From an uncultured Spirochaetota bacterium (GTDB lineage: Bacteria > Spirochaetota > B62-G9 > DRHN01): a stretch of 64,000 nt of DNA. Each line of letters starts with the position of its first letter. Positions within the stretch are counted from its first letter, which is position 1. This document shows, one piece after another, positions 3,199 to 60,300 of the stretch. Both the position numbers and the translations under genes were made by a program. The DNA lies in the NCBI GenBank assembly GCA_964525675.1, contig CAZGJW010000002.1:7093-71092 (forward strand), read 5' to 3'. The notes beneath the pieces were generated by a model. The model had not been told where the DNA came from, did not search any database, and saw nothing but the letters and a program-made list of their open reading frames with translations.

Positions 3199-3357
3199 TT
3201 ATGGTTTTATCCATTAGAATTCTGGCATTTTGTACCAGAATTTCGAATACAAATGACTATATTATACTACATTGCCGTAATATTACATACTTTAGGTAAA
3301 AACCATTAGGTAAGTGATAATTTTCAACTTCTAAGATTGGCAAGTTTACTTACCTAT
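3199..3357 (-). mobile_element. R1 repeat copy A (159 nt, MITE-like, subfamily 1)
   Basis: The reverse complement reads ATAGGTAAGTAAACTT...CACTTACCTAATGGTTTTTACC...TTCTGGTACAAAATGCCAGAA...GGATAAAACCATAA. It is alignable end to end with copies at 18753, 35561, 52001 and 60141. Confidence 0.85.
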
Positions 3358-3407
3358 GTTTCTGAAAGTATACTTAAAACGAAACCGAATACTACAGGGG
3401 AGAGCGT

Positions 3408-4421
3408 ATGGCATCGTTAAAAACATCGTATATGGGAATGGAGTTGAAAAACCCGGTTATTGCGGGTGCTAGCAGTATGACCATGAATCTTGGCAGTATC
3501 AAAAAAATAGAGGAGGCGGGGGCAGGAGCCCTTGTGATCGCTTCTCTTTTCGAGGAGCAGATACAGCTCGAACAGATGAAGCTTGAGGAGGAGCTCGAGA
3601 AGATCAAGTACAGAAATCCGGAGATGATTGAAATATTTCCCGACCTCGAGCACGCAGGGCCGCAGGAGCATCTATTGTGGGTCAGAAAGGCGAAGGAGAG
3701 CGTCGCAATTCCGGTCATTGCGAGTCTCAATGCGGTAAACCGTGAAACATGGGTCGAGTACGCCGCGCTGCTCGAGCAGACGGGTGTGGACGGTCTCGAG
3801 CTCAATTTCTTCGCAACACAGAGTGAGTTCGACAGGGCAGGGGTGGAGATAGAGGATGAACAGGTTGCCATCCTGAAAGAGATAAAGAAAAAGGTCAAAG
3901 TTCCAATTAGCGTGAAACTGAGTATTTACTATTCGAACCCCCTCCACATTATTAAAAAGCTCGACGAGGCAGGTGTAAACGGTTTCGTTCTCTTTAACAG
4001 GTTTTTTCAGCCCGATATCAATATCGATGAAGAAAAAAACATCTCCCCATTTAATTTCAGCCATGAAACGGACTACCGCCTGCCGCTCCGCTACACAGGG
4101 ATCCTGTTCGGAAATATCGAGGCCAGCATCTGCAGCAGCAGGGGGATACTGCACGGCAGGGAAGTAATAAAGATGATTCTTGCAGGCGCGGACTGCATAC
4201 AGTGCGTAAGCACGCTGTTTATAAACAAGGTCGATTATATAAAGAGCATGCTTTCGGATATCGAGAAATGGATGGACAAGAAGGGATATGTCGACCTTGC
4301 GAGTTTCAGAGGCAAAATGAGCAGGAAGAACAGCAGCGACCCGTGGACCTACACACGCGCCCAATACGTGAAGCTGCTCGTAAAGCCGGAGCAGTTCCTC
4401 AGGGATGTGAAAACTGAATAG
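3408..4421 (+). CDS. dihydroorotate dehydrogenase-like (PyrD/PreA-fold TIM-barrel flavoprotein) protein
   Basis: The 337-aa ORF has a GGGGAG SD upstream. The N-terminus MELKNPVIAGAS and the later GADCIQ... are typical of class-1 DHOD-like proteins. Confidence 0.7.
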   Translation: MASLKTSYMGMELKNPVIAGASSMTMNLGSIKKIEEAGAGALVIASLFEEQIQLEQMKLEEELEKIKYRNPEMIEIFPDLEHAGPQEHLLWVRKAKESVAIPVIASLNAVNRETWVEYAALLEQTGVDGLELNFFATQSEFDRAGVEIEDEQVAILKEIKKKVKVPISVKLSIYYSNPLHIIKKLDEAGVNGFVLFNRFFQPDINIDEEKNISPFNFSHETDYRLPLRYTGILFGNIEASICSSRGILHGREVIKMILAGADCIQCVSTLFINKVDYIKSMLSDIEKWMDKKGYVDLASFRGKMSRKNSSDPWTYTRAQYVKLLVKPEQFLRDVKTE

Positions 4422-4494
4422 AGTGACGGATATGTTTTTCATTATTGAAAACAAAGCTTCTGGGTAAAAATATCCTTTTTAATAAAAAAATCTC

Positions 4495-4522
4495 TTGACA
4501 GTACCGTACGGGAATATATAAT
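4495..4522 (+). promoter_or_regulatory. sigma70-type promoter (TTGACA-16 nt-TATAAT)
   Basis: TTGACA lies at 4495-4500 and TATAAT at 4517-4522. It sits in an AT-rich spacer upstream of a 15-codon ORF and the ABC operon. Confidence 0.5.
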
Positions 4523-4558
4523 AAATTGCGAATTGTAGTATTTTTACAGGAGGGAAGT

Positions 4559-4829: not shown

Positions 4830-4865
4830 ATAATCACAAATTTTTTAATTTTAAGGAGGGAAAGA

Positions 4866-6899: not shown

Positions 6900-6925
6900 G
6901 ACTTGCATGCAGAGGAAAAAAGTAC

Positions 6926-8431: not shown

Positions 8432-9509
8432 ATCACCGTTGAAAAATGCCGGGAATGAGAATGAGAGAACTCCGTTACTCATGTGGATCGAAAAAGGCCT
8501 CGGGTTACGAAGAATCGGATGGGCAACATTACTGCGCGGTGGCCCGATAATCGCACTTCTGCTTCTTGTCCTGTATTTTTCGCTGGCTTCTCCTCATTTC
8601 TTCACAGTAGATAATTTAAAGAACATAGGTGAACAGAACGCCTATCTCATTATTCTTGCCGTGGGTCAAACGATGGTAATTATCGGCGCAGGAATTGACT
8701 TATCCGTTGGCGCGTTGATGGCGGTGTCCGCTTCAATTATGGCCGTGTTTGCTACACAGGAAGTAACCCTCTTTGGTATATTGGTTGGACCAATTCATGC
8801 AGCGCCGGCGATGCTGTTGGGATTTTTAGTCGGTGCCTTCGCAGGCTTTATCAACGGATTGGTTATTTCCAAAGGAAGGATCCCTGATTTTGTTGCCACT
8901 CTTGGTATGATGGAAGCTGCTCGCGGCGCAGCCCTCCTGGTAACCGGAGGACTGCCCATTCCCTCTCATCTGACAGCAACCGAGTTAAAGGGATATCTGC
9001 CTGATGCGATCATCTGGATGGGAGGGAAAGAAATTTTTGGGATTCCTACAGGGCCGTTGATTGCTGTTTTAGTGGTTATCATAGGTTGGTTGATTTTAAC
9101 CCAGACCGTACTGGGACGATCGATATTAGCAGTGGGAGGGAACAGGGAGGCCGCAAGGGTATCGGGCCTCAAGGTTGATCGCATCAAAATCGCTACATAT
9201 ACTATCATGGGTATGATGGCTGCAGTAGCTGGCATTGTATTAGCGGGGCGTATGAACTCAGCCAATGCTTTGATGGCTACCGGTGTAGAATTGAAGTGTA
9301 TTGCAGCAGTGGTAATAGGCGGTTCGAACCTTTTTGGCGGGGAAGGTACCATTATTGGGAGTTTGATCGGTGCAATCATCATGGGAGTTCTGGGTAACGG
9401 CCTCAACCTGCTCAGTGTCTCAGCTTTCTGGCAGCGGGTTGTGATGGGACTCGTTATCATTGGAGTTGTGATTTTCGACCAGTGGCGCCGTCGGCGGTTC
9501 GGCGCATAA
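8424..9509 (+). CDS. sugar ABC transporter permease (RbsC/AraH family)
   Basis: It is a polytopic hydrophobic 361-aa ORF. The 8-nt overlap with the ATPase gene suggests translational coupling. Confidence 0.85.
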   Translation: MSESPLKNAGNENERTPLLMWIEKGLGLRRIGWATLLRGGPIIALLLLVLYFSLASPHFFTVDNLKNIGEQNAYLIILAVGQTMVIIGAGIDLSVGALMAVSASIMAVFATQEVTLFGILVGPIHAAPAMLLGFLVGAFAGFINGLVISKGRIPDFVATLGMMEAARGAALLVTGGLPIPSHLTATELKGYLPDAIIWMGGKEIFGIPTGPLIAVLVVIIGWLILTQTVLGRSILAVGGNREAARVSGLKVDRIKIATYTIMGMMAAVAGIVLAGRMNSANALMATGVELKCIAAVVIGGSNLFGGEGTIIGSLIGAIIMGVLGNGLNLLSVSAFWQRVVMGLVIIGVVIFDQWRRRRFGA

Positions 9510-9583
9510 ACTGCGTGTTGTTTCTCAATTAATCCTGATAGAGTATTCCCTTCACTGTTTGTTATAAAAACTTATTGTAAATA

Positions 9584-9918
9584 CAATTAGCGTGAAACTG
9601 AGTATTTACTATTCGAACCCTCTTCACTTTATTAAAAAGCTCGACGGTACCGGCGTAAACGGTTTCGTGCTCTTCAACCGGTTTTTTCAGCCGGATATCG
9701 ATATCGATGAAGAAAAAAATATCTTCCCATTTAATTTCAGCCATGAAACAGACTACCGCCTGCCGTTCCGCTACGCAGGGCCCCTGTTCGGAAATATCAG
9801 GGGCAGCATCTGCAGCAGCAGGGGTATGCTGCACGGCAGGGACGCAATTAAAATGATACTCGCAGGCGCGGATTGCATACTGCAATTCTTCACGTTGCAC
9901 AAAAAATTTTGCGTTTAA
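9584..9918 (+). pseudogene. internal fragment of a DHOD-like gene (paralog remnant)
   Basis: Positions 9584-9880 align without gaps to 3904-4200 of the intact gene, with 265/297 identical by my count. There is no N-terminal half, and the tail diverges and then stops. Confidence 0.85.
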
Positions 9919-10151
9919 GAACATTCCTCCGTGCAGACAATAATTTTACAACGTCGAATTACCGTCAAACCAGCTCAATATTCTTGACATGAGTTCATTT
10001 TTCCTGTACAGTGGCAGGAAACCGGATGGGTTCTGACAGCCGGTTTTCTGTTTGAGCGGGACCATTCACCTTTACAATATGGGTATCCAGTACTTCCTGT
10101 TAAAAGTGTATTAAACATCCAATATCAGTAGGTTTTGCTGTGCTGAGAAGA

Positions 10152-10442
10152 ATGAAGATTATTGCATGCGTGCTCGTTTTCTTTGGTCTGGTTTTCAATG
10201 TGTCCGCAGGCGGCAAAAAGGAAGCGGCCGAGTCAGGAGGAAAAGAAGCACCTGAAGCAAAAGTGCTCGAAGCGGCCTTTATTCTCCACAGAACCCATGA
10301 TGACGGTACATGAAATGCCATGGCATGGGAGGGTATGCAAAAGCTCAATGAAATAGGGTATGAAACAACTGTCAGTGAAAGCCTCGATGATGTGGATGTT
10401 GCGAAGCAGGGGTGCATGGACCCGGTTTTGAGCGTTATCTGA
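10152..10442 (+). pseudogene. N-terminal stub of a BMP-family (PnrA-like) ABC substrate-binding protein with an in-frame TGA
   Basis: It encodes the signal-like MKIIACVLVFFGLVF, then ...AFILHRTHDDGT*NAMAWEGMQKLNEIGYE. The TGA sits where related proteins carry Trp. The reading frame ends after ~96 codons, whereas the family is usually >300 aa. Confidence 0.6.
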
Positions 10443-10496
10443 TGCGAAGATGTATCTTAATACGAAGATGTATCTTCATGCGAAGATGTACCTTCC
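10443..10496. repeat. three tandem 18-bp units, each containing the palindrome GAAGATgtATCTTC
   Basis: The units are gcGAAGATGTATCTTaat, acGAAGATGTATCTTCat and gcGAAGATGTAcCTTCca. They lie 59-112 nt upstream of the methyltransferase ATG. Confidence 0.8.
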
Positions 10497-10554
10497 AGTG
10501 CACCTTCTGCCTTCGTGAATCCGCTGTCTGCTCATAACGGAAGAAGCACTGTCT

Positions 10555-11841
10555 ATGAAAACAACTCACAAAATAGTGATCGGTGATTCCAGAAAGATGG
10601 ATGCGGTGGCGGATGAGTCTGTTCAGCTTGCAGTAACCTCCCCGCCGTACTGGCAGCTGAAGGACTATGGAAACGCCAGCCAGATCGGGTACAACGACAC
10701 CTATGAGGAATACATAAACAACCTGAATCTTGTATGGAGAGAAGTATACCGTGTGCTTGAACGAGGCTGCCGCCTCTGTATCAATATCGGGGATCAATTT
10801 GCCCGTTCGGCCTACTACGGGCGTTACAAGGTTATTCCGATACGAACTGAAATAATCAGGTTTTGCGAAACGATCGGATTCGACTATATGGGAGCCGTCA
10901 TCTGGCAGAAGGTGACCACCACCAATACCACTGGCGGCGCAACCATCATGGGGTCCTTCCCTTTTCCGAGAAACGGCATTTTGAAGATCGATTACGAGTA
11001 TATTCTGGTATTCAGGAAAGGGGGCACGTCGAAGAAGGTCGAAAAAGAGAGAAAGGAGCGTTCTCGGCTCACAACGGAAGAGTGGAATCGCTACTTTACC
11101 GGTCACTGGAAGTTTCCCGGCGAGAAACAGGATTCCCATTTGGCCGTTTTTCCTGTAGAGCTGCCGGACCGGCTGATAAAGATGTTCAGCTTTACGGAGG
11201 ATACGGTCCTGGATCCCTTTCTGGGAAGCGGAACAACCTCTCTGAGCGCAAAACGCCTCGAGAGAAACTCCATCGGATATGAGATCAACGAGGAGTATCT
11301 GCCCCTGATCAGGGAAAAAATCGGTATGGACAGCCCCGGGTTGTTCGGTGATTGCGAGTATATTATTGAACATCAGAAAAAAATACGTCTCGACTTCGCA
11401 GAGGAAATACACGCGCTTCCCTACATTTTCAAGGATCCGGTCGAAATCGAAAGAAAGAGTAATCCGAAGAGTCGCCGGTTTGGCTCCAAAATCGATTCAA
11501 CGCATCCATCAGGGGTCACGTACTATACGGTAAAAGAGGTTGTCAGCCCCAATACGCTCCGGTTGAACGGCGGGCTGCTGGTGAGACTCATCGGAATTGA
11601 GGTTATCGAGGGCAGTCGAGACCGGGCTTTGGCGTATCTGGAGCGTGAGACGAAGGGGAAGAGGGTTTTTTTGAAGAACGATCCTGCCCATCAAGACACG
11701 GATGTTCTTTCCTGTTATCTTTTTCTTAAAAACAAAACGTTTATCAATGCCCGCCTTATTAAATCCGGGCTCGTTTCAGTGGATACGCAGTCGGACTACA
11801 GGCATAAATCACGTTTCATCAAATACGCCAGGGATGGTTGA
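10555..11841 (+). CDS. beta-class DNA methyltransferase (SPPY motif, likely N4-C or N6-A) with a C-terminal SNase-like (thermonuclease-fold) domain
   Basis: Motif IV VTSPPYW at aa ~28 precedes motif I DPFLGSGTT at aa ~220. The last ~100 aa (LVRLIGIEVIE...KGKRVFL...LSCYLFLKNKTFINARLIKSGL) resemble the SNase OB-fold. Confidence 0.75.
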   Translation: MKTTHKIVIGDSRKMDAVADESVQLAVTSPPYWQLKDYGNASQIGYNDTYEEYINNLNLVWREVYRVLERGCRLCINIGDQFARSAYYGRYKVIPIRTEIIRFCETIGFDYMGAVIWQKVTTTNTTGGATIMGSFPFPRNGILKIDYEYILVFRKGGTSKKVEKERKERSRLTTEEWNRYFTGHWKFPGEKQDSHLAVFPVELPDRLIKMFSFTEDTVLDPFLGSGTTSLSAKRLERNSIGYEINEEYLPLIREKIGMDSPGLFGDCEYIIEHQKKIRLDFAEEIHALPYIFKDPVEIERKSNPKSRRFGSKIDSTHPSGVTYYTVKEVVSPNTLRLNGGLLVRLIGIEVIEGSRDRALAYLERETKGKRVFLKNDPAHQDTDVLSCYLFLKNKTFINARLIKSGLVSVDTQSDYRHKSRFIKYARDG

Positions 11842-18361: not shown

Positions 18362-19261
18362 ATGAAGCTAGATGGCAAGGTGGCATTGGTTACGGGCGCT
18401 GCTCAGGGTATTGGGGAAGCTACGGCGCGTGTATTTGGTGCAGAAGGTGCATATGTGATTGCGGTTGATATTAATGGTGATAAAGTAAGCCAAAACGTTG
18501 AGTACATGAAACAAAAAGGGTATCTGGCTGAAATGATGCAAATCGATGTTTCAGATATAGATGATATTCACCGGTCTATTAGTAAAATAGTGGAAAGTCA
18601 TCGACGCATCGACATTCTCATCAACATTGCAGGGATATTTTCAAAAACCCCTATACTTAAAATTACTGAAGATGAATGGGATATGGTATTTAGTGTTAAC
18701 CTTAAAGGCACTTTTTTTCTTTCAAAAGAGGTTCTGGTAACAATGATTAAAAATAGGCAAGTTAACTTTCAAACTTAAAAGGTGCAAACCAACACCTGCC
18801 TAATGGTTTTTACCTCTAGAATGTAATTACAAGTAATTGTAACAGTATAGATAGTCAGCTTTGCATGAAATTCTGGTACAAAAAACCGTAATTTTAATGG
18901 ATAAAACCATAAGTATGGAAAAATTGTAAATGTATCCTCGCTTTCTGCAAAGAGGGGGGGAGTAACTTCCGGTATACATTACGGTGCCTCAAAGGCGGGG
19001 GTAATCTCAGTTACAAAATATTTAGCCAAGTTTAGTGCTCCTTATAACATCAATGTGAATGCGGTTGTTCCTGGCTTTGTTGACACACCAATGTTCAGGA
19101 GAAATGTTGATGCGATAGAGAACGTAATTAAATCGATCCCGATTGGTCGTGTTGCAAGGCCTGAAGAGGTCGCGAAAGTGATTATGTTCCTCGCATCTGA
19201 CGATGCCAGTTACATTACTGGTGAAATATTGGATGTAAATGGTGGAATTCTGATGGATTAA
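18362..19261 (+). pseudogene. FabG-like SDR oxidoreductase interrupted by R1 copy B
   Basis: The N-terminal half (TGAAQGIG...NIAG...MIKN) stops at a TAA inside the insert. The same frame resumes as (K)YGKIVNVSSLSAKRGG...YGASKAG...PGFVDTPM after the insert. Confidence 0.9.
18753..18912 (+). mobile_element. R1 repeat copy B (160 nt, subfamily 2) inserted in the SDR gene
   Basis: It runs ATAGGCAAGTTAAC...GGATAAAACCATAA. Removing 156 bp (the core plus one ATA) restores ATG ATT AAA AAT AAG TAT GGA AAA = MIKNKYGK. Confidence 0.9.
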
Positions 19262-21584: not shown

Positions 21585-23144
21585 ATGAAAGTGACAAATC
21601 GATTTTTCTACTTTTTACTCATCGTCATGTTTGTTTGTACTGCGGTGGGTGTATCCTTCGCCGGAGGAGGAGAAGGAAAGGGTAAAGCGGAAGATGTTGC
21701 GAAATATTATGCGGCTGCAGACAAATACGGAAAAACAGAGCAAGCTAAAAAGTTATACCGATGGTATGCGGATGCAGCGGCTCCCTACAGGGGTAAGACT
21801 GTCAAGACTATTCTAGAGGCTCTGCCTCCTACGCAATATCTTGCGAACACGATTGCTCCAATGTTTATAGAGATCACCGGTATAAAGCTCATTGCTGAAT
21901 TGGCTTCCAATGAGGAGGTTTACTCCAAGGAGATGCTTGAAGCTACAAGCCGTAGCGGGACCTACGATTTTTTCTACGATGATCAGGACATGATCGGTAC
22001 CTGGAATAAAAGGAAAAGTATTGCCAATTTAACACAGCTCATGAAGGATCATCCTGAAATTATCGAACCCGAGCTGGATCTGGATGATTTTATTGATGCG
22101 GTTATAAACATGTATACAGATACCGAAGGGAACCTCTGGAACCTGCCTATGGAACAATACCCGAAAGTATACATCTATCGGTCAGACCTTTTTGAAGATC
22201 CGCAGGAAAAGGCAGCATTTAAGAAGAAATACGGTTGGGATCTCAGGCCGGCAAGAACCTACGATGAATACACCGAAATTGCAGAATTCTTTACCAGGCC
22301 GGAGGAGAATCTGTATGGACATGCCTGTGCCGGGAGAAGACACCCTGCGCTTGCTTATGAATGGACTGAAGCGCTCTTTCTTCAAGCTGGGGTATGCAGT
22401 CCTGGCATCCCTTGGGGGCGGCCGATATGCGGCTGGGGCATAAAGATCAATGAAAATAATAAGATGGCTGGATGCTCCGTTTCAACAGGGGGGACGATCA
22501 ACGATCCTAAAATGGTAGAATTCTTCACTATGTACAAGAACCTGATCGATAATTTTGCACCTCCCGGTATTCTCGAGTTCATCTGGGAAGAGGAGGCAGA
22601 AAGTTTCAAGGCGGGTACAGTTGCACAAATTCCAAATTTTTATTCGCAGTTAACTCCAACCCTGGCTGCATCTGATTCGGCGGTTGTTGGTAAATTTAAA
22701 GTCACTATGCCGCCAACAACCGGGTACTGGAAAGAAGGGATGGCCCGGGGTTACTGGGATTCAGCAGGTTTTATTATTCCTGCAGCGTCGAAAAATGTAG
22801 AGCCTTCATTCTTGTTTGCCCAATTTGTCGTTTCAAAGGCTCATGAGCTTGAAAGGGCAAAGAATGTTGGCTGCACGGTGAGAAAGTCGGTTCTCGCATC
22901 ACCCGATCTTGCTGAAACAGATAGGAAACTAGGTGGTCTGATCAGTTTACAAAAAAGCCCGGAAGCACTTACTTACACCGGAACTGATCCTGCTATCGAG
23001 GAATATGCCGCCATGCTTGAGATAATATACTCTGATATTCATAGAGGGTTGACAGGTGAATGGTCTCCAAAAGAAACCTTGGACACCCTGGCAAACGAAC
23101 TGGACACCGAGTTGGGCAGGATGGGTTATCCAATTGGAAAGTGA
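21585..23144 (+). CDS. ABC transporter extracellular solute-binding protein (family 1, large 519-aa form)
   Basis: It has an AGGAGGAAAA SD and a signal-like N-terminus. It sits in an operon with two permeases and two ATPases. Confidence 0.75.
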   Translation: MKVTNRFFYFLLIVMFVCTAVGVSFAGGGEGKGKAEDVAKYYAAADKYGKTEQAKKLYRWYADAAAPYRGKTVKTILEALPPTQYLANTIAPMFIEITGIKLIAELASNEEVYSKEMLEATSRSGTYDFFYDDQDMIGTWNKRKSIANLTQLMKDHPEIIEPELDLDDFIDAVINMYTDTEGNLWNLPMEQYPKVYIYRSDLFEDPQEKAAFKKKYGWDLRPARTYDEYTEIAEFFTRPEENLYGHACAGRRHPALAYEWTEALFLQAGVCSPGIPWGRPICGWGIKINENNKMAGCSVSTGGTINDPKMVEFFTMYKNLIDNFAPPGILEFIWEEEAESFKAGTVAQIPNFYSQLTPTLAASDSAVVGKFKVTMPPTTGYWKEGMARGYWDSAGFIIPAASKNVEPSFLFAQFVVSKAHELERAKNVGCTVRKSVLASPDLAETDRKLGGLISLQKSPEALTYTGTDPAIEEYAAMLEIIYSDIHRGLTGEWSPKETLDTLANELDTELGRMGYPIGK

Positions 23145-23259: not shown

Positions 23260-24375
23260 ATGGCATCAGTACGATTGGAAAACATTTCTAAGTCCTTTAT
23301 CGGCAAAAAAAATGTGCTGAAAGATATTTCCCTGGAGGTGACTGACCGTAGTGTGACGTCCCTCCTGGCTCCAACAGGATTTGGAAAAACGACCATTTTA
23401 AGGATAATTGCGGGTGTTGAGAAACCTGATACAGGAAGAGTCTACTTCGGAGATAAGGATGTCACAGAGATGCCAACTCAGAAGAGAAATGTAGCGATGG
23501 TATTTCAAAGTTTTGCACTCTATCCGAATATGACTGTGTATGCAAACATTGCCTCTCCCTTGAAAATTATGGGGCTTGATCAAACTGATATCGATGAAAG
23601 AGTAACAAACCAGGTGGAGTCTTTGAAGATCCAAGATCTTCTAAGTAAAACTCCACATGAATTGAGCGGTGGAGAGAGACAAAGAGTAGCAATTGCACGT
23701 GCTCTGGTCAAGGGGGCTGATGTTTATCTAATGGATGAGCCACTCACAAATCTTGACTACAAGATCCGTGAGAGCATGCGAATGGAGCTGAAAGAGATCT
23801 TTCGTGAGATAAAGGGAAGCATCATATTTGCGACGCCGGATCCAAGGGAGGTTTTATCAATGTCTACTCATGTAGCATTTCTGCAAAATGGTACAATTGG
23901 ACAGTACGGTACTACGCTCGATGTGTATAATCAGCCGAAAAACGTTGAGGTGGGTACTTACTATGGATATCCTCCCATGAACATTTTTGATGGTCAATTT
24001 GTCGAGAAAGACGGTAAATGTTTTTTGCGTGTTTTTGAAGAGATCGATTTGGATATAACTCACATGAAAGACCTTTTCAAAACTGAGAAAATATTCGATG
24101 TAGGTTTGCGGCCAAATGAAATTCGTATGAAGGATAGGTTTCAGAATGGGATGATTTCATTTTTACCAACTGTCCTGCTGAGCGAGGTTATTGGTTCTGA
24201 GACTATTGTTTATATGAAATATAAGGATGTAGAGATGAAAATGTTGGTTTCAAGATTGATTAAGTACGAGGGAAAGAAGATTGAGGTATGTTTTGATCCT
24301 TCAAATCTCTATATATTCGGGAAACAGACGAACAGACTGATCGGCAAATATATAACAAACGTGGAGAGAAAGTAG
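23260..24375 (+). CDS. ABC transporter ATP-binding protein (MalK/UgpC type) with atypical Walker A and H-loop
   Basis: Walker A is APTGFGKTT (Ala instead of the first Gly). The signature LSGGERQRV and Walker B YLMDEPL are canonical. The H-loop position reads ATPDP, with no His. Confidence 0.8.
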   Translation: MASVRLENISKSFIGKKNVLKDISLEVTDRSVTSLLAPTGFGKTTILRIIAGVEKPDTGRVYFGDKDVTEMPTQKRNVAMVFQSFALYPNMTVYANIASPLKIMGLDQTDIDERVTNQVESLKIQDLLSKTPHELSGGERQRVAIARALVKGADVYLMDEPLTNLDYKIRESMRMELKEIFREIKGSIIFATPDPREVLSMSTHVAFLQNGTIGQYGTTLDVYNQPKNVEVGTYYGYPPMNIFDGQFVEKDGKCFLRVFEEIDLDITHMKDLFKTEKIFDVGLRPNEIRMKDRFQNGMISFLPTVLLSEVIGSETIVYMKYKDVEMKMLVSRLIKYEGKKIEVCFDPSNLYIFGKQTNRLIGKYITNVERK

Positions 24376-28926: not shown

Positions 28927-29916
28927 TTAGAACTGCAGCCTGGCGCCCCCTTCAAGCATGTAGTTGCTGTTCTTGAAGTTGTATCCTCCCTGCAGGGTAA
29001 CGGCGAGCATCAGGATTTTCACCTCCAAACCGCCGAACAGTGTTGTATCGAATCCTTCAGGCTTTGCTTCCGTGCTGATCACGAGCTGCTTATTTGTAAA
29101 GTCTTCAACATAGGGGTCATACATGGAATCGGTGAGCTCGAGAGTCGTGCTTCCGGAAAGATCGGTTGTGGCCTTGCCGAATGTCTTGCTGAACCGTGCG
29201 CCCCCGAACAGGTTGATAAAGAGTATTTGAAAATTTATCTGGCCCTCTCCGCCAACGGTAAAGCCTTTCCAGTTCGTTTCAAACCCGGTTTCTGTAATGA
29301 GATTTGCAACCTGCGTCGAACCGAGTTCGGGAACATCCACGAAAACCGGTATCGAATCCCGTCCCAGCATGGTTACGTTTCCGTTGATATATTCGAAGAA
29401 ACCGCCGAAAGATGCGCCGGTCCTCAAAAGCATCAGCACCCTTTTATCCCAGAGCTCGTAGCGCAGCTTTCCGCCGATAATCATGTTGTTGAGCTGAACA
29501 CCGGCGTCCTTGTCCTCGATCTTGGGAAATCCGGCAAGTTTGCCGCCTACTTCGAAGCGCTTGATCTTGAATTTTGCATGTACTCCAATGGCGGGAACGG
29601 GGATGTATGAAAGTCCCTCGAAATCGTACTGAAGGCTCGTGCCGAGGGCGATATTTTCGGTCGGTACGAATGAGGCTCCGCCTGCAATACCTACTTCGAT
29701 ATGTTTGATCGTCGAATAGCCGACCGGATCGCCTAAAAATGTCATTGCGCCAAGGTTCGGCCCGAAGATGCTGCTGAGACCCTGCGATATTGCGGTCAGA
29801 TCCGACTCAACAGCGCCAAGGTCATATGGCTGTGGCTTTTGGGCGAATACGAATGTCCCGGGTAAAACAAGAACTGTTACGCATATAACTGTTATCAGTA
29901 TTTTTTTCCTGTTCAT
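28927..29916 (-). CDS. predicted outer-membrane beta-barrel protein (no named family recognised)
   Basis: It has the signal peptide MNRKKILITVICVTVLVLPGTFVFAQ, alternating beta-strand patterns and a C-terminal ...GGARLQF. ATG 29916 follows GGAAGGAGAAG. Confidence 0.6.
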   Translation of the reverse strand: MNRKKILITVICVTVLVLPGTFVFAQKPQPYDLGAVESDLTAISQGLSSIFGPNLGAMTFLGDPVGYSTIKHIEVGIAGGASFVPTENIALGTSLQYDFEGLSYIPVPAIGVHAKFKIKRFEVGGKLAGFPKIEDKDAGVQLNNMIIGGKLRYELWDKRVLMLLRTGASFGGFFEYINGNVTMLGRDSIPVFVDVPELGSTQVANLITETGFETNWKGFTVGGEGQINFQILFINLFGGARFSKTFGKATTDLSGSTTLELTDSMYDPYVEDFTNKQLVISTEAKPEGFDTTLFGGLEVKILMLAVTLQGGYNFKNSNYMLEGGARLQF

Positions 29917-35560: not shown

Positions 35561-35741
35561 ATAGGTAAGTAAACTTGTCAATTTTAGAAGTTGAAAATTA
35601 TCACTTACCTAATGGTTTTTACCAATAGTATGTAATATTATGGCAATGTAGTATAATTTAGTCATTTGTATTCGAAATTCTGGTACAAAAGGAAAAGATA
35701 TCACTTCGCTAGACCAGAATTCTAAATAGATAAAACCATAA
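35561..35741 (+). mobile_element. R1 repeat copy C (181 nt, subfamily 1, enlarged 3' hairpin loop)
   Basis: It runs ATAGGTAAGTAAACTT...GATAAAACCATAA. The TTCTGGT...ACCAGAA hairpin has a 28-nt loop. It lies between the inverted 18-mers at 35505-35522 and 35786-35803. Confidence 0.85.
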
Positions 35742-35820: not shown

Positions 35821-36828
35821 ATGAAGGAGAGATCATTTAGCGGTATTCAACCGTCGGGAGTCATACATATCGGTAATTATCTCGGCGCAATCAAAAACTG
35901 GGTTGAACTTATCGAAAATTATGAGTGCATCTTCTGTGTCGTCGATTACCACGCCATTACCATTGAGTATGAACCGCCGGAACTGAGAGAAAGGATTATC
36001 GAAGCGGCAAAAACACTTATCGCATCCGGTATAGATCCTGACCGGTGCACCCTGTTCGTTCAGTCGGAAGTTCCCGAGCATACTGAGCTGACATGGATTC
36101 TGAGTTCTATAGCAACGATTGCCGAGCTCGAGAGAATGACCCAATTCAAGGATAAGAAACTGCAGCATTCCGACAATATCAATACCGGCCTGCTAACCTA
36201 CCCGGTTTTAATGGCGAGTGACATCATTGTGTACAAGGCCCAGGTTGTACCTGTGGGTGACGACCAGCGTCAACACCTCGAACTTACCCGGGAGATTGTA
36301 CGGCGGTTCAACGGTAAGTTCGGCGACACTTTCCCGGAACCGAAAACTCTTTTGGGAGAGGCTCCCCGCATCAAGGGGCTGGACGGCAGCGCGAAGATGA
36401 GCAAGAGCCTCAATAACTATATTGCGCTTATTGAGGAAGAGGATGTTCTGTGGGAAAAGCTGAGAACAGCGGTTACCGATCCCGCGCGAATCAGGCGATC
36501 AGACCCGGGCGACCCACACATCTGTAATATATTTTCCCTGCATCGGTATTTCTCAACAGATGAGGAGATCGGTTACATCGAGAAGGGATGTAAAACGGCG
36601 GGGATCGGATGCATTGAATGCAAGAAAATACTTGCAAAAAATATTAACAACATAATTGCTCCAATAAGGGAAAAGAAGAAGGAGCTTGACAGAAATACCA
36701 CATATGTGCTGGATGTGCTTGAGGAGGGACGGAAGCACTGCAGCTCGATCGCATGTAATACCATGAACGAAGTAAGGGAAAAAATCGGGGTGAATTTCCG
36801 CCGGGATCTTCTCAGTAACCTAAAATAA
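35821..36828 (+). CDS. trpS: tryptophan--tRNA ligase
   Basis: It has the HIGH-type HIGNYLGA, KMSKS and a typical class-I TrpRS layout. Length is 335 aa. Confidence 0.95.
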   Translation: MKERSFSGIQPSGVIHIGNYLGAIKNWVELIENYECIFCVVDYHAITIEYEPPELRERIIEAAKTLIASGIDPDRCTLFVQSEVPEHTELTWILSSIATIAELERMTQFKDKKLQHSDNINTGLLTYPVLMASDIIVYKAQVVPVGDDQRQHLELTREIVRRFNGKFGDTFPEPKTLLGEAPRIKGLDGSAKMSKSLNNYIALIEEEDVLWEKLRTAVTDPARIRRSDPGDPHICNIFSLHRYFSTDEEIGYIEKGCKTAGIGCIECKKILAKNINNIIAPIREKKKELDRNTTYVLDVLEEGRKHCSSIACNTMNEVREKIGVNFRRDLLSNLK

Positions 36829-36933
36829 ATTATCTTTGATACCCAGTCCTGCCAAGGATCGGTCCCAAGGGGACGTAATCCGCCGCGAAGTGGTTTTTCC
36901 CAGGGGGACTTTCCCCAGGGGGACATACGCCAC
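36808..36933 (+). repeat. R2 repeat, copy a (overlaps the last 7 codons of trpS)
   Basis: CTTCTCAGTAACCTAAAATAAATTATCTTTGATACCCAGTCC...CCCAGGGGGAC x2...GGGACATACGCCAC is homologous, with indels, to 49020-49159. Confidence 0.75.
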
Positions 36934-37028
36934 CTCTGAAGGGCTGATACTCTTAAAAAATACTTTTTATTTAACGGATAAAGTAGTACTATAGCACTAC
37001 ATTCGCAGAAGAGAGGGGGTGAGACTAC

Positions 37029-37326: not shown

Positions 37327-37367
37327 ATAGGCAAGCGAGCTTGCAAACATAAAGGGTTTAAACCAAA
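37327..37367 (+). repeat. R1 truncated copy F (5' hairpin module only)
   Basis: ATAGGCAAGCGAGCTTGCAAACATAAAGGGTTTAAACCAA aligns to the first ~40 nt of copies B and D. It lacks the CACTTGCCTAATGG arm and everything 3' of it. Confidence 0.6.
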
Positions 37368-48956: not shown

Positions 48957-49159
48957 CCTCTTCTAAGTAACTTCTCACGAAGTTACTTCATGATATTCGG
49001 TCCCGAAGTGGCATACGCCTCTTCTAAGTAACTTCAAATAAATTATCTTTGATACCCAGTCCCGGGAGGATGTATCCTGCCAAGAATCGGACGCGAAGCG
49101 ACATATCCCGCCAGGGACATATCCCGCCAGGGACATATCCTTACAGGGACATACGCCAC
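48957..49159 (+). repeat. R2 repeat, copy b, with an extra 61-bp leading unit and four 16-bp tandem units
   Basis: CCTCTTCTAAGTAACTTC occurs at 48957 and 49018. A 10-bp perfect hairpin AAGTAACTTC-tcac-GAAGTTACTT lies at 48965-48988. AAATAAATTATCTTTGATACCCAGTCC is shared with 36824-36850. The 16-mers (c)AGGGACATATCCCGC span 49096-49159. Confidence 0.8.
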
Positions 49160-52000: not shown

Positions 52001-52158
52001 ATAGGCAAGTGAACTTCCAAACGTAAAAGGTTCAAATCGACACTTGCCTAATGGTTTTTACCTATAGAATGCAATGATAGGTAATTGTAACATAATAAGT
52101 CAGTTGAGCATAAAAATTCTGGTACAAAAAACCAGAATTTTAATGGATAAAACCATAA
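52001..52158 (+). mobile_element. R1 repeat copy D (158 nt, subfamily 2)
   Basis: It runs ATAGGCAAGTGAACTTCC...CACTTGCCTAATGGTTTTTACC...TTCTGGTACAAAAAACCAGAA...GGATAAAACCATAA. It ends 12 nt before ATG 52171. Confidence 0.85.
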
Positions 52159-55104: not shown

Positions 55105-57681
55105 ATGAAACATTTCTTCTTTGCAATCGCACTCACCATTTCTTTGTTTCCCGGAGTCCTTTTCGGTCAGCAGGGCGGACAAGGACAGGAACCTGATTCA
55201 GTACCGCTGGAGGATAATCAATACAACAGGATATATCAACTGCTTAAAGGGTCTGACCTCGACGCCCTGCGAGATGCCTGCAGCGAAAGAGGATTGCCGG
55301 CTGACGGTGATGAGGCGGCGTTGAAGCGGAGACTCATGAATGATGAGATACGCAGGAGCCGAAGCACTTTTGAAACGAGATCAGCTGAGAGCGAGCCTGA
55401 AGCTATAATTCTCAATAATGCCGATTTTATCCGCACCCGGAAAAACGAGGCGGGTGAGGAGATCATTGTTCTGAATGGAAATGTCGATGTCAATTACGGT
55501 GGAAGGCATATACAGGCCGATGAGGTTCGAATCAATGTGGACAGGGAGATTGTGCGAGGAAGTGGTACTGTTCGCTTTGAAGAGGGAAAGAAGGTATACA
55601 CCGGGGACAGTTTTTACTACAATCAGAAAACGGATGAGGGCATTTTTTTCAGGGCAAAAACTTCTATTGAAGACTTCATATATACAGGCAGCATGATCGA
55701 GAGGATACAGGGAACGGATAAGTTTGTTTCAGATGACCTGACTTTGACGACCTGTAATATACGCTACCCTCACTACAGAATTGAAGCAAAACGGCTTTTT
55801 TTTTATGATTCAGAACGGGCGCTCGTAAAAAATGCTTCCCTCTACTTCGGACAGGACAATGTTCTCAACCTGCCCTACATGTACAGGAATTTGAAAGATC
55901 ACGCATTCAAGTCATCCATCCAATTCAGGGATCGGTCGGGGCTTGTGCTCCAGAATACGTACACCCCGCTGAAAACAGATGAAAAAGAAATTGAGCTCAA
56001 GGGTGATTTCTATGAACGGCTCGGTGTATATGCAGGGGCCGATTACATTTCTTCGTACCCTCTGGGCGAAACCGAGCTCCGGTTTTCAGCAGCGCTTTCG
56101 AATGATGTATATTACTACGATGAAGTCAAGGAGCACTGGAGCCCGCTCGGCCCTTCTGATGCCGAAGATTATTCGATCACCCGTTCCGGGCGCTATAATA
56201 TTGGGCTGTATCAGAAGATTGTTATCGAGAAGGCCTATACCAACACAGCAGAGATCAGTTTCTCCCATATGACGGATCCGTACTATGAGTACGATTTCGA
56301 ACGGAGAAGTCAGAGGTTCGACCTTTTCGATGTAATCGGGCAGGCAGAGTCGGATTTTCCGCGAAAGGGGTCGGGGTACACATGGTTTTTCAACGACACC
56401 TTCCAGTACAACAGCCTCACACTTTCTCTTCAGAACAGTATCCGGTTCGAACCGCAGCGCAATACCGATGAGGATATCGTCTCTATGCCCGACTACTACG
56501 AGTACCGGCTGTACACAATCGCCGCTCCGCAGGTTTCAGTATACCATACAGCGGACATATTCACCGGGTCGGATTCGGCCCTGTTTTCAGACCTGACCTA
56601 TACGGGTACAACAAATTATGCGCATGTACTGTACTACGATGAGAATGAAAGAATCGAAAGCGAGGTGAACAAGGCAAATGCTGCCCTGGACCTTACGAGG
56701 GATTACATTGTGGGAAATTATATCAGGATTACCCCTGAAGTCGAAGGGGGAGCGCAGGGACAGGCCCATGTAGACCCCACGTCGAGTGAAACGACGGACG
56801 ACAGGCAGAACACATATGCCTACGGCCGTACTACCGACGAGTTTCAATTCGGGTCCGAGAATTTGTATGCCCTGTTCACCTACGATCTCAAGTACAAGTT
56901 CGCAGGACCTGAAGATCTCTACACCTATCACCGGTTCAGAGTACATCAGATGGATTTTCTCGGGTTTGCTAAAGTTTACGGCTTCACCGAGATGCTCGAA
57001 ACCTCGTATGATCTCAGGCCGGTCTATGACTGGGACAGCGGCAGCTACCGGGCAGTTGAATTTGACATAAGCCGTTTCAACCCTCTGAAGAATACGCTGA
57101 CCTATGCGCCGACCGAGCGTATTCTGATCAGCGATGTATTTTTATACGACATCTCTTCCCTCCGGCCGACAATGAATAAGCTCACTTCAGATCTTTCGAG
57201 CAGGGATATCGATCTTTTTGGGAACACGCTTGTCGTATCATGGGGCCTGGGGTGGAACCACTACTTTCAGAATCCGACACTCGATACCTTCGATTCTCTC
57301 TTTCAGATCGATCTTTCTTTCAGAAGGTACCTGAAGACCTACTTTAAAGTGCTCTCCAGAAATGAGAGTCTCTGGCGGTACTTTCCGGGTACCGCTGCCG
57401 AAAGAGGCGTTGAAGCGGTGAACCCTGTTATTGACCTGCTCAAATCCTTCAATTATTTCAACCGCGATGACAGAATATCTTCTCTTTTCAAGATGAAGCG
57501 GATATCTTTTGGATTTGTCCATGAGCTCCATGACTGGGATCTGAAGTTTGACTACACAGGAAACAGGGAGCTTTCCTATGACGGAAGCCGTTACATCTGG
57601 GATAATACGTATACTGTAAGCATAGGGCTGCGGGAAGTGAAGAGTGTTGACGTTCATACAAAGATAAAGGAACAGCGCTAG
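55105..57681 (+). CDS. LptD/OstA-like outer-membrane protein with an N-terminal SAP-like motif
   Basis: It has a signal peptide and LDALRDACSERGLPADGDEAALKRRL (SAP-like). An OstA-type region follows (VLNGNVDVNYGGRHIQADEVRINVD...GTVRFEEG), then a long Tyr/Phe-rich beta-barrel-like C-terminus. Confidence 0.65.
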   Translation: MKHFFFAIALTISLFPGVLFGQQGGQGQEPDSVPLEDNQYNRIYQLLKGSDLDALRDACSERGLPADGDEAALKRRLMNDEIRRSRSTFETRSAESEPEAIILNNADFIRTRKNEAGEEIIVLNGNVDVNYGGRHIQADEVRINVDREIVRGSGTVRFEEGKKVYTGDSFYYNQKTDEGIFFRAKTSIEDFIYTGSMIERIQGTDKFVSDDLTLTTCNIRYPHYRIEAKRLFFYDSERALVKNASLYFGQDNVLNLPYMYRNLKDHAFKSSIQFRDRSGLVLQNTYTPLKTDEKEIELKGDFYERLGVYAGADYISSYPLGETELRFSAALSNDVYYYDEVKEHWSPLGPSDAEDYSITRSGRYNIGLYQKIVIEKAYTNTAEISFSHMTDPYYEYDFERRSQRFDLFDVIGQAESDFPRKGSGYTWFFNDTFQYNSLTLSLQNSIRFEPQRNTDEDIVSMPDYYEYRLYTIAAPQVSVYHTADIFTGSDSALFSDLTYTGTTNYAHVLYYDENERIESEVNKANAALDLTRDYIVGNYIRITPEVEGGAQGQAHVDPTSSETTDDRQNTYAYGRTTDEFQFGSENLYALFTYDLKYKFAGPEDLYTYHRFRVHQMDFLGFAKVYGFTEMLETSYDLRPVYDWDSGSYRAVEFDISRFNPLKNTLTYAPTERILISDVFLYDISSLRPTMNKLTSDLSSRDIDLFGNTLVVSWGLGWNHYFQNPTLDTFDSLFQIDLSFRRYLKTYFKVLSRNESLWRYFPGTAAERGVEAVNPVIDLLKSFNYFNRDDRISSLFKMKRISFGFVHELHDWDLKFDYTGNRELSYDGSRYIWDNTYTVSIGLREVKSVDVHTKIKEQR

Positions 57682-57789
57682 GTATAAGGGCTCGCGAATC
57701 AGCGGGTGGGCCGAATGCGATCCGACGGGGTTCATTCAGCTGACTGCAGGTTGGATGAATGCATTCAGTGCATACCAGCGCAGGTACGC

Positions 57790-58773
57790 ATGCACGCATC
57801 GGTAATTATTCCAACGCATAACAGAGAAGAAATCCTCGTTCGGGTTCTGAGTTACTATGCATGTCAGGCGAAACCTGACGGGGATTTCGAGATACTGGTG
57901 GTTGATGACGGTTCGACGGACGGTACAGAATCGCTTTTCAATGATTTGAAGGATGTGCAGATAGACAAAAATTCCAATATTTTATTCGAATACACCGACA
58001 GAATCCGGGCAGTAAAGAAGGGGTGGTACCTCCCGGATACGGATGAAAGCCTCTTTATCGGCAAGAACAGCCTTTTTGTATGGTATATACGGATTAAAAA
58101 ATCGGGACGATCGGCGGCGCGCAATGTGGGAATCGGTTTTTCATCCTACCCGCTCATAATTTTTGTGGATGATGATATATTTGTCGAGCCGGAATTTATT
58201 AAAAAACATAGTGCCGCACATGGGAAAGATGATGGGCTTGTTGTCATGGGTAAGGTCATACATACGCAGGAGCTTGACAACCCATTCTCCGCCGCCTGGA
58301 AACTCAAGGATATAAATACGGCCTTTCTCTCTACGGGAAACGCATCGGTATTGAAAAAATACATTATACAGGCCGGCCTTTTCGACGAGCGATACACGGT
58401 ATACGGCTGGGAGGATTTTGATCTCGGCATTCATCTGCAGGAAATCGGGGTGCGTTCGATAAAGAGGAAAATTTACGGGTACCACTACGATCCGCCAGGA
58501 ACATTCATCTCACCACGCGATGTGTACGAAAAGGAGAAGGAACGGGGTATAAGTGCGGTATATTTTTACACCGGGCATCCGCTGAAATGGGTAGCGAGAT
58601 TTACGCTTATTCACAGCAGATTCTTTCGGGCGTTCTTTAGGGTGCTTGGATATGATAACTGGTTCCTTTCAAAGAAGAGAATCTCATTTTTCAAGGGTTT
58701 GATACTGCTTATCATTCGGTACAAGGGTTATTTCGACGGAATAGACGAGGGAAAGAAGAATAGTAATGGCTGA
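57790..58773 (+). CDS. glycosyltransferase family 2
   Basis: It has SVIIPTHNREE, VVDDGSTDGT and a DDD motif. ATG 57790 is preferred. Confidence 0.8.
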   Translation: MHASVIIPTHNREEILVRVLSYYACQAKPDGDFEILVVDDGSTDGTESLFNDLKDVQIDKNSNILFEYTDRIRAVKKGWYLPDTDESLFIGKNSLFVWYIRIKKSGRSAARNVGIGFSSYPLIIFVDDDIFVEPEFIKKHSAAHGKDDGLVVMGKVIHTQELDNPFSAAWKLKDINTAFLSTGNASVLKKYIIQAGLFDERYTVYGWEDFDLGIHLQEIGVRSIKRKIYGYHYDPPGTFISPRDVYEKEKERGISAVYFYTGHPLKWVARFTLIHSRFFRAFFRVLGYDNWFLSKKRISFFKGLILLIIRYKGYFDGIDEGKKNSNG

Positions 58774-60019
58774 AAAAGAGGACCTCATTATCTTTTCAAA
58801 CGGCCCGGGCGAGGTGTCGACCTGGGTGCTGCCGATAGTCGAGTCAATCCGCAAAAGAAGCGAACTTGCCGGACGGTACAATATAACCCTCATCATGCAT
58901 CCCTGCCAGTTCGGCTCAGGCACCGAGCATAAAGTCGCCGGGGATTTCGAGGGTGTGGACAAAACCGTGACCCCCGGCCAGTACATAAAGATGCTCTTTT
59001 TCGGCGCAGGGACCTACAGCTTCAGCAGGAAAGGCGTTGTTTTCTCGCTCGGCGGCGACCTGCTGCATCCCGTCCTGTTCCACAGGAGAATACGGGGAAA
59101 GTATACGCTGTATGCGTATAGCCAAAACACCGGGTATGAAAAGCACTACGAAAGGATTTTTGTGAGAAACGGCTACGTCAGAGACAAGTACCTCAAACGC
59201 GGTGTTCCGCCCGACAGGGTAGTCATTGCCGGGGATCTCGTGTACAGCTCGCTCTCCTATCTTCTGGACAGGGATGCGGCGCGGAAGGAGGCCGGAGTTA
59301 CAAACGGGGAGAATATGGTGGTGTTCATGCCGGGCAGCAGGGACTTTGAGGTAAAATATATGCTGCCTGTTTTCCTCAAGGTTATGGACGGTCTTACCGA
59401 ACGGATACCGAATGTCAGGGTATTTATTCTGAAATCTCCCTATATCTCGTATAAGCTTATCGAGCGAAGCCTTGAAATGGGAGGCAGGATCAGGGAGGCG
59501 GAGAGCCTGCCCGGTGCATTGAAGAGAGGCGATGGGTGGGAAATCGAATACGCCGGGAGTAAGAAGGTGAGCATACTCGAAGGCGGGCTTGAGCGCTGGG
59601 GAAAGGGGGTGGATTTTGCGGTAACTCTGCCCGGCACGAATACTATACAGCTTGCCTACCGGAAAATCCCCGAGCTCGTGGTTGCCGCCTTGAACAAGCC
59701 GGATGTCATTCCCGTTGAAGGGGTGTTCGGACTTTTGAAATGGGTACCCGTTATCGGAAAACCTGTTTTGAAAAGGGCGGTTTTGCGTTACGCGCAGGAG
59801 TTTCCGTTTGCAGCGCTTCCAAATATCTATGCGGGAGAGGAGGTCGTGCCGGAGCTTTTCGGTATGCTCCAGACCGCCGACATCACATCCAGGCTCGTTG
59901 ACATATTCGAAAAGGGTGAGGAAAAAGACATTGCAAAGAGGCTTTCGAAGTTTACACCGAGCCAGGACCCGGCCCGGCTGATCGTAAACGCTGTGTGGGG
60001 CAATGAGCAGCCCGGCTGA
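58766..60019 (+). CDS. lipid-A-disaccharide synthase-related (LpxB/GT19-like) protein
   Basis: The 417-aa ORF overlaps the GT2 stop (ATGGCTGA). The N-terminal IIFSNGPGEV and later PGSR... resemble LpxB-related proteins. Family call is by eye. Confidence 0.5.
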   Translation: MAEKEDLIIFSNGPGEVSTWVLPIVESIRKRSELAGRYNITLIMHPCQFGSGTEHKVAGDFEGVDKTVTPGQYIKMLFFGAGTYSFSRKGVVFSLGGDLLHPVLFHRRIRGKYTLYAYSQNTGYEKHYERIFVRNGYVRDKYLKRGVPPDRVVIAGDLVYSSLSYLLDRDAARKEAGVTNGENMVVFMPGSRDFEVKYMLPVFLKVMDGLTERIPNVRVFILKSPYISYKLIERSLEMGGRIREAESLPGALKRGDGWEIEYAGSKKVSILEGGLERWGKGVDFAVTLPGTNTIQLAYRKIPELVVAALNKPDVIPVEGVFGLLKWVPVIGKPVLKRAVLRYAQEFPFAALPNIYAGEEVVPELFGMLQTADITSRLVDIFEKGEEKDIAKRLSKFTPSQDPARLIVNAVWGNEQPG

Positions 60020-60140
60020 TCGAGAATATGTCTTTAAGATGACCATCCGGATGATTGTGAATGTGCTTTTCGCGACCAGCAGCTCTGGTTTAATCGCACA
60101 AGTGTGTTTCATTAATACTTTTCGCCGGCGCCAATACGGT

Positions 60141-60300
60141 TTATGATTTTATCCATTAAAATTACGGTTTTTTGTACCAGAATTTCATGCAAAGCTGACT
60201 ATCTATACTGTTACAATTACTTGTAATTACATTCTAGAGGTAAAAACCATTAGGCAAGTGCCGGTTTTAATTGTTAAAGTTTGGAAGTTCACTTGCCTAT
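60141..60300 (-). mobile_element. R1 repeat copy E (160 nt, subfamily 2)
   Basis: The reverse complement differs from copy B at only 2 of the last 120 nt but at 10 of 30 positions in the 5' hairpin loop. Confidence 0.85.

Follow-up and report, generated by a model that had tools for sequence, protein, structure and literature searches.

We identified a family of structured repeats of about 160 nucleotides (nt), here termed R1, in a 64,000-nt stretch of the genome of an uncultured Spirochaetota bacterium (contig CAZGJW010000002.1, positions 7,093 to 71,092; hereafter the window), and comparison with related loci indicates that R1 is very probably a mobile, non-autonomous element. With a probability that we put near 0.5, R1 is a recently active, non-autonomous transposable DNA element of an uncultured Spirochaetota clade that is moved in trans by an HUH single-strand mechanism. 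Taken by itself, the single-strand HUH mechanism is a tentative proposal that falls somewhat short of even odds, and membership of R1 in an IS200/IS605-like family of insertion sequences (IS) is not established.

An earlier note, made from the letters of the window alone, had described five full copies of R1 (A to E) and one truncated copy (F). All five full copies and their coordinates and strands hold (Table 1), with termini and hairpins common to all; each begins with ATAGGYAAGT and ends with GATAAAAYCATAA. Copies B and E are 92.5% identical, A and C 86%, and the remaining pairs 65–87%. Three conserved motifs occur exactly five times each in the window, compared with 0.25–2.6 occurrences expected from shuffles. 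When the five copies are scored with a hidden Markov model (HMM) that was itself built from them, their E-values are 7e-39 to 7e-45, which is circular as a test of significance. The recurrence of R1 is nonetheless beyond chance, because each of the three motifs is found five times and the same HMM finds copies in unrelated genomes. The truncated copy F is a weak match, covering model positions 1–38 only (E = 0.012 with an HMM of the 5' part), and its status as a remnant is plausible.

Filled and empty sites and the insertion target

The loci examined comprise 1.37 Mb of R1-bearing sequence (loci designated by L numbers) from metagenome-assembled genomes (MAGs) and metagenome contigs. They contain 185 R1 5' ends and 152 complete copies, and the distinct sequences number 121 and the distinct sites 122. 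The modal copy length is 158–160 nt, and lengths range from 133 to 399 nt. Five pairs of filled and empty sites were identified, in which the element is present or absent as a block between close relatives. Three of these pairs, two of which are reciprocal between one pair of genomes, come from recovered loci, and the other two involve the window. In all, approximately 185 copies came from three Spirochaetota MAG species and numerous metagenome contigs.

Copy B interrupts a short-chain dehydrogenase (SDR) gene, with 130 N-terminal codons preceding the element and the rest of the gene following it. A syntenic relative carries an intact 255-aa ortholog (P0001, 90% identical), and the gene order GntR regulator, SDR, two ABC permeases is common to the window and the relative. 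The filled site reads ...ATGATTAAAA[ATAGG...AAAACC]ATAAGTATGG, and in the empty counterpart in L042, L043 and L044 ...ATGATAAAAA is joined directly to ATAAATATGG. Copy B has inactivated the SDR gene. Conversely, an empty target in the window (Table 1) corresponds to an orthologous site in the relative L042 that is filled by R1 (9087–9250). For a further orthologous pair, L021 and L039, the spacer is unalignable and the exact empty site is not derivable.

Because of the empty sites, the final ATA(A) of the repeat is target and not element, and we correct the boundaries drawn in the earlier note accordingly: the mobile unit is ATAGG...AAAACC. A single ATA occupies each of the five empty sites, and in all five pairs the right-hand ATA of the filled site matches the target. 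The left-hand triplet deviates in two pairs, being ATTA in one and GCA in the other. Among the 122 sites, 107 have ATA on both sides, and in the 15 exceptional sites left and right never match. Eight of the 12 right-side variants alter the third base only (ATG at six sites, ATT at two).

The target is asymmetric, with A at 62–80% at positions -5 to -2, followed by ATA and then by W-W-T. Read on the opposite strand, R1 lies 3' of [T/A]TAT (TTAT in 62% of copies) and the element's own end is CTAT; the flanks recorded for the 121 distinct element sequences are TTAT (75), ATAT (21), CTAT (8), GTAT (6) and TCAT (6). The simplest reading of these junctions is that R1 is 5'-ATAGG...AAAACC-3' with an ATA of its own, which would enter in a fixed orientation between an A-run and a target ATR. 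R1 probably does not duplicate its target. As the earlier note had stated, there are no terminal inverted repeats (TIRs): within the first and last 20 nt, the 5' end (GGCAAGTGAAC) and the 3' end read as its reverse complement (GGTTTTATCC) have just GG in common.

A metagenome contig, Ga0315555_1000221, contains two copies of different subfamilies arranged head to tail with one ATA in common. This tandem dimer carries the junction ACC-ATA-GG, and the right end-left end (RE-LE) junction sequence known at the tandem site is AAAACCATAGGYAAGT. Seven copies at different, unrelated loci of MAG CAZFTJ01 are 97–100% identical, which indicates a recent burst. Two copies, L088 7597–7754 and L129 42–199, are chimeric, with H1 (the 5' hairpin) from one subfamily and the centre and 3' part from another; this suggests that copies have recombined or undergone gene conversion with one another.

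Folded structure and covariation

Copy D is nearest to the family consensus and has the best covariance model score (187.5 bits). Its fold is strong on both strands, with z-scores relative to shuffles of -5.2 (+), -6.2 (-) and -5.9 as DNA. The hairpin H1, the closing helix with 11 of 14 positions paired and the TTCTGGT/ACCAGAA hairpin (H4) that had been proposed from the window are all present. The H4 loop of D is indeed 7 nt long and that of C 28 nt, the latter containing a 21-nt module (GGAAAAGATATCACTTCGCTAGA). The 3' arm of H4 is degenerate in B and E (ACCGTAA). H1 also has the described double change from C:G to T:A, and copy E the described G:T wobble. In addition to its outer stem, H1 of copy D has an inner AACTT/AAGGT stem and a 3' bulge that is the site of module insertion.

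In the fold of copy D, positions 2–11, at the left terminus, pair with positions 41–50 of H1, and positions 51–62 pair with the right terminus (145–156) to form the closing helix. The target nucleotides A155 and T156 pair with A51 and T52. An internal 22-mer, the 'splint', is complementary to the right end and the left end, and the two termini therefore abut in a folded single strand. This segment is invariant enough to be used as a search pattern.

Covariation was assessed in a model-fitted alignment of 122 distinct copies and in a second, unfitted set of 21 sequences. In the fitted alignment 89.8% of cells are paired, compared with 29–49% when the partners are slid, and 13 pairs show double changes, compared with 7.1 +/- 1.6 in shuffles (none of the 500 attains the observed number). 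The H1 pair 6:46 is C:G in 83 copies, T:A in 26 and T:G in 11, on different H1 loop types, and all seven pairs of H4 show some double changes.

Insertions of at least 4 nt are found in the interior of H1 (about 30 copies), in the centre (about 28) and in the H4 loop (37), and none occur in stems. Several are diverged tandem duplications of neighbouring sequence, such as TAAATGCCTGATGGTG beside CACTTGCCTAATGGTT, or CCTGTGCCCTTGGTAC, which occurs in one to four units. Other insertions consist of GC-rich hairpin modules that are confined to R1. Short derivatives of 76–109 nt retain only H1 and the closing helix.

Several candidate substructures were rejected. The GC-rich modules of approximately 70 nt do not constitute an independent nested element, as they occur only within R1, and a hammerhead-like CUGAUGA in one such module is not conserved. 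No convincing solo copies were found of the closing-helix unit as an inner MITE (miniature inverted-repeat transposable element) with inverted ends of 12–14 bp. Resemblance to attC and dif was considered and rejected, as the box consensus does not fit.

Mechanism of movement and alternative explanations

We favour single-strand HUH transposition because R1 is mobile, lacks inverted ends, probably does not duplicate its target, has a short oriented target, has an end that mimics that target, and appears to be under selection for pairing. The enzyme would be encoded neither in the element nor in the window and would act in trans. R1 would move as a folded single strand in which H1 stacks on the closing helix, so that one internal 22-nt segment would hold both ends and the target AT adjacent to each other. 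A structure-recognizing HUH-type ('peel and paste') transposase would cut the opposite strand after ...TAT at each boundary, and the element would be re-inserted 3' of a T-TAT site without duplication. The [T/A]TAT flank of the opposite strand and the element end CTAT would then correspond to the arrangement of left and right cleavage sites (CL/CR) of the IS200/IS605 family. TTAT is a known target or transposon-associated motif (TAM) in this family, as in ISDge10 (PMC13507860), and IS608 likewise uses hairpins and base-paired cleavage sites without duplication (PMC3201880).

R1 shares with IS200/IS605-derived elements of the PATE type, and with IS608, ISDra2 and ISDge10, the lack of TIRs, the hairpins at both ends and oriented insertion next to a target of 3–4 nt, which in R1 is probably not duplicated. 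The TTAT-like left flank and CTAT end on the opposite strand, and the pairing of cleavage or target bases to an internal segment, are also held in common. However, the end pairing of R1 is 10–12 bp compared with 4 nt, its end hairpins are terminal and not subterminal, neither TnpA nor TnpB was found nearby, and its sequence resembles none of the records searched.

Several observations weigh against this reading. The stems of H1 (TAGGCAAGTG) and of the closing helix (ATGGTTTT) differ from each other and reach the termini, with only their WWGG/CCWW feet alike, whereas the hairpins of IS608 are alike and are set back from the cleavage sites by 19 and 10 nt (PMC3201880). Copies of IS200/IS605 elements usually show strand bias; the orientation of R1 relative to flanking GC skew is 63:50 (p = 0.30), and 41 versus 30 at sites with an absolute skew above 0.05, GC skew being a proxy only for the direction of replication. 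Within the window, three copies are (+) and two (-) on a strand that is uniformly G-rich. The lack of duplication rests on two of the five pairs and could reflect mutation after insertion. Selection on structure, which the earlier note had proposed, finds modest support in the fitted alignment, but in the unfitted 21-sequence alignment two pairs show double changes, a number reached in 240 of 500 shuffles and thus not significant. The closing helix never covaries and is merely invariant, and the counts of G:T and A:C (197 versus 156) do not single out one folded strand. We consider the covariation real but modest.

The search for an enzyme weighs in the same direction. Among six-frame open reading frames (ORFs) of the 1.37 Mb, phmmer and motif searches with two ad hoc TnpA query sequences gave no Y1/HUH TnpA match, and all-against-all protein clustering revealed no multicopy protein in these loci. 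The absence of an ORF within the copies, noted earlier for the window, extends to all of the approximately 185 recovered copies, hence no autonomous copy was found among them. When 5' ends were paired with the nearest 3' end, gaps greater than 400 nt were all due to copies with a diverged 3' end or to contig ends and no parent element emerged; orphan 3' ends are truncations or belong to the tandem dimer. The direction suggested by the earlier note, a TnpA(Y1), RAYT or other ORF carrying the same ends, fits the insertion anatomy, but no such partner was found in the recovered loci. The enzyme that moves R1 could reveal a new lineage of HUH or other recombinases.

It is possible, but unlikely, that R1 is a 'self-synapsing' single-stranded element whose splint pairs both termini and the target dinucleotide, and which depends on an enzyme family new to transposition, or alternatively that it is an orphan guide-RNA-bearing element whose homing depends on a TnpB-like nuclease. 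If this were true, the DNA or its transcript would carry out the end pairing and target reading that are elsewhere done by proteins or bridge RNAs. The anatomy of R1 offers a concrete and testable model of a minimal element that specifies its ends and target by base pairing. R1 joins the few bacterial non-autonomous elements without inverted ends, in a phylum whose mobile DNA has been little studied.

Movement of R1 as a classical cut-and-paste MITE by a DDE transposase, with duplication of 3-bp ATA or 2-bp TA, degenerate ends and hairpins that are incidental or regulatory, is an unlikely alternative to HUH transposition. A preference for TA in AT-rich intergenic sequence is common among bacterial MITEs. 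R1 is small, non-coding, multicopy and insertion-polymorphic, as a MITE is, and resembles the Correia/NEMIS, ERIC and RUP elements in being approximately 100–250 bp, AT-rich and present in tens to hundreds of mostly intergenic copies, with an AT/TA-containing target, strong secondary structure and occasional gene disruption. The ATA at both junctions of most sites, the three of five filled/empty pairs that look exactly like a strict 3-bp duplication and the lack of replication-strand bias are all consistent with this mechanism. However, R1 has no inverted termini beyond GG...CC, probably makes no duplication, and has two stacked hairpins compared with the one long hairpin of classical MITEs. 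Its target has an A-run on one side, unlike the usually symmetric targets of DDE enzymes; in two pairs the left triplet, but never the right one, departs from the target, the non-ATA sites never match from left to right, and compensatory changes preserve the hairpins.

Conservative site-specific recombination through an ATA or TA core of a double-stranded circle, by an IS110 DEDD enzyme with a bridge RNA, an IS607 serine recombinase or a tyrosine recombinase, is quite unlikely. It would account for the lack of TIRs and the probable lack of a true duplication, for one short core at both junctions and in the target, and for the tandem ACC-ATA-GG junction. The spread of a small non-coding module by an IS110 transposase also has precedent in ssr9 of ISPpu9, which like R1 is structured, borrows its transposase and occurs as solo copies (PMC12288879). 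However, ISPpu9 targets specific REPs and its transposase is in the same genome (PMC12288879), while the targets of R1 are of low information and no DEDD enzyme was seen. By a rough estimate the R1 target holds about 11 bits, far below bridge-RNA-guided IS110 targets such as REPs; the flanks share only the A-run, ATA and W-W-T and no long specific target. The core is not surrounded by symmetric half-sites, the occurrence of GCA as the left triplet beside an ATA target is hard to square with core identity, and no recombinase was found in scans of the window and loci.

That R1 is primarily a structured RNA gene or a cis-regulatory RNA, such as an element of the 5' untranslated region, with its mobility a side issue, is very unlikely. 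The strong fold (z about -5 to -6), the restriction of expansions to loops and the presence of some covariation suit such an RNA, and 76 of 111 copies are oriented as the downstream gene, 32 of them ending within 40 nt of the start codon. R1 may alter expression at such sites, given how frequently it lies this close to start codons. Nevertheless, R1 has no fixed orientation or partner gene: 26 copies run antisense to the genes on either side, and just 8 are located between convergent genes. Promoter and terminator scans of R1 gave nothing above shuffles. The presence or absence of R1 between near relatives and its insertion into a coding gene also argue against an RNA function, as do the lack of an Rfam match, the equally good folding of both strands and the internal tandem slippage units (CCTGTGCCCTTGGTAC), which look like neutral DNA.

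Spread through an RNA intermediate, by target-primed reverse transcription of an opposite-strand transcript with UAU ends from a nick after AAAAATA, would fit the sharp boundaries, the lack of TIRs, the A-run target, the 3-nt microhomology at both ends and the 5'-only remnant F as an aborted copy, but is highly improbable, since a reverse transcriptase was not seen, the copies carry neither poly-A nor any other tail, and truncated copies are rare. We know of no bacterial element of this kind that resembles a short interspersed element (SINE).

Two other classes of repeats invite comparison with R1. REP/BIME repeats and their RAYT proteins share with R1 the hairpin repeats, the proposed domesticated HUH enzyme and a 5' (G/A)TAG-like tag beside a palindrome. 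However, REPs are 20–40 nt, GC-rich and not known to jump into genes, whereas R1 is mobile and AT-rich (about 30% G+C), is 155–400 nt in length and occurs as solitary copies and not as clustered inverted pairs with a GTAG/CGTC tag. The BOX elements of Streptococcus pneumoniae, for which no transposase is known to us, likewise have conserved end modules and variable internal units. R1 differs from BOX in its defined insertion sites, its demonstrated presence and absence, and its loop expansions and local tandem duplications, and the two have no sequence relation.

Distribution, genomic context and other features of the window

The GTDB species set contains 39 matches to a 22-mer of the conserved core of R1, all of them in three MAG species of uncultured Spirochaetota save for one 2-kb contig binned as Dehalococcoidales. 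The R1-bearing MAGs are CAZFTJ01, CAYSRJ01 and JAGLSF01. The window's own genome is a fourth R1 lineage and matches contig Ga0315551_10000291 of the JGI metagenome 3300032062. With a looser pattern, more than 112 metagenome stretches were found among the matches listed. The Dehalococcoidales contig (L018, CAYVML010000315.1, 2.1 kb) carries the sole R1 match outside Spirochaetota; it stops within the element, and its ABC permease ORFs are similar to those of the window. Mis-binning is more likely here than horizontal spread.

R1 was previously undescribed; its class, the small mobile repeat, is known and its build is not. The earlier note had not recognized the repeat, and searches with the window and copy variants agree: scanning the window against Rfam 15 gave nothing at the gathering score, and with relaxed thresholds copy D gave only microRNA-type noise (E at least 0.17) and two expanded copies gave nothing. 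Plasmid and phage collections contained nothing resembling R1 by blastn, and a scan of viral contigs contained no R1.

Many contigs or fetched stretches end inside R1 (L013, L016, L025, L033, L046, L070, L084/L129, L102, L116, L119, L132 and L142), and R1 therefore fragments assemblies of these genomes. In addition to breaking MAG assemblies, the element creates pseudogenes, as in the SDR gene. The copies lie outside the ORFs called here with the exception of window copy B, and sites besides B were not screened for disrupted genes.

Table 1. Coordinates of R1 copies, structural parts of copy D and related features in the window
Feature	Position	Strand	Remarks
R1 copy A	3199-3357	(-)	subfamily A/C; mobile unit 3203-3357; target ATA 3200-3202
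R1 copy B	18753-18912	(+)	subfamily B/E; mobile unit 18753-18908; target ATA 18909-18911; interrupts short-chain dehydrogenase gene
R1 copy C	35561-35741	(+)	subfamily A/C; trpS (35821-36828) downstream
R1 copy D	52001-52158	(+)	mobile unit 52001-52154; target ATA 52155-52157
R1 copy E	60141-60300	(-)	subfamily B/E; mobile unit 60145-60300; target ATA 60142-60144
Copy F	37327-37367	(+)	remnant of R1 5' end, H1 5' arm and loop only; upstream of murD
Hairpin H1, copy D	52002-52050	(+)	outer stem 52002-52011 with 52041-52050 (TAGGCAAGTG/CACTTGCCTA)
Splint 22-mer CACTTGCCTAATGGTTTTTACC, copy D	52041-52062	(+)	20/22 complementary to right end (GGATAAAACCAT) and left end (TAGGCAAGTG)
3' hairpin H4, copy D	52117-52137	(+)	TTCTGGT-ACAAAAA-ACCAGAA; main loop-expansion site in other copies
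Closing helix 3' arm (GGATAAAACCAT), copy D	52145-52156	(+)	last two bases (AT) belong to target triplet
SDR/FabG-like gene, N-terminal half	18362-18752	(+)	ORF runs on into R1, stop at 18778; Pfam adh_short positions 1-127 of 195
SDR gene, C-terminal half	18909-19261	(+)	in frame with N-terminal half once R1 is removed (..TMIKN/KYGKIVNVSS..)
Empty R1 target	24352-24354	(+)	GCAAATAT-ATA-ACAAAC, between two ABC ATPase genes

The window consists of unremarkable chromosomal sequence, encoding two-component regulators, ABC sugar transport, EF-G, TrpRS, MurD and carboxylases. Copy A lies between a histidine kinase gene (1741–3141) and a DHO_dh-like gene (3408–4421) and is antisense to both. Copy D ends 12 nt upstream of the start codon of a DUF1638/hydantoinase gene, and copy E has an LpxB-like gene on one side and an aldo/keto reductase gene on the other.

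Of the 54 non-overlapping ORFs in the window that reach 70 aa or more, about 47 were scanned with Pfam, and those left unannotated with NCBIfam; the scans agree with the earlier note in detecting no transposase or recombinase, nor do they detect an integrase, and about ten ORFs stay unannotated. These include large ORFs of 219–858 aa at 61500–62882 (-), 63091–63750 (-), 28927–29931 (-), 55105–57681 (+) and 21585–23144 (+), which have no significant Pfam or NCBIfam match. The large unannotated ORFs are not repeated among the loci, which on present evidence leaves no candidate transposase among them. One of them, of 519 aa, retains synteny with the ABC transporter.

A second, unrelated repeat family, R2, consists of tandem 15–16-nt units (GGGATATGTCCCTGGC-like, two to four times) followed by CGATCCTTGRCAGGACTRGGTATCAAANAGTAACTT-loop-AAGTTACTTAGAAG. 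The sites of its twelve distinct copies lie in the window at 36810–36945 (- strand) and 49100–49153 and in L009, L023, L057, L060, L061, L066, L082, L112, L115, L150 and L152. R2 is nested in R1 in L023, abuts the R1 5' end in L150 and replaces it in L009, and the spacing of its CTTGACA...TATCA is promoter-like. In L104 (approximately 11100–11470, - strand) a truncated R1 3' end directly follows a small ORF, the C-terminus of which (..GDYRIVYRIENEYIFILGICHRKEIYKK..) we take, by eye only, to be like that of a RelE/ParE-type toxin.

Two further regions of the window stand apart from R1. Between 16000 and 28000 the G+C content is 0.38–0.44, compared with about 0.48–0.50 elsewhere. This stretch contains the GntR regulator, the disrupted SDR gene, a sugar ABC transporter and an FGGY kinase, and may be an acquired island, which is not bounded by R1 copies. 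At 9562–11841 an N6/N4 DNA methylase gene (10555–11841) lies beside two small unannotated ORFs on the opposite strand (9562–9924 and 10100–10417), an arrangement that may represent a restriction-modification system or an orphan methylase.

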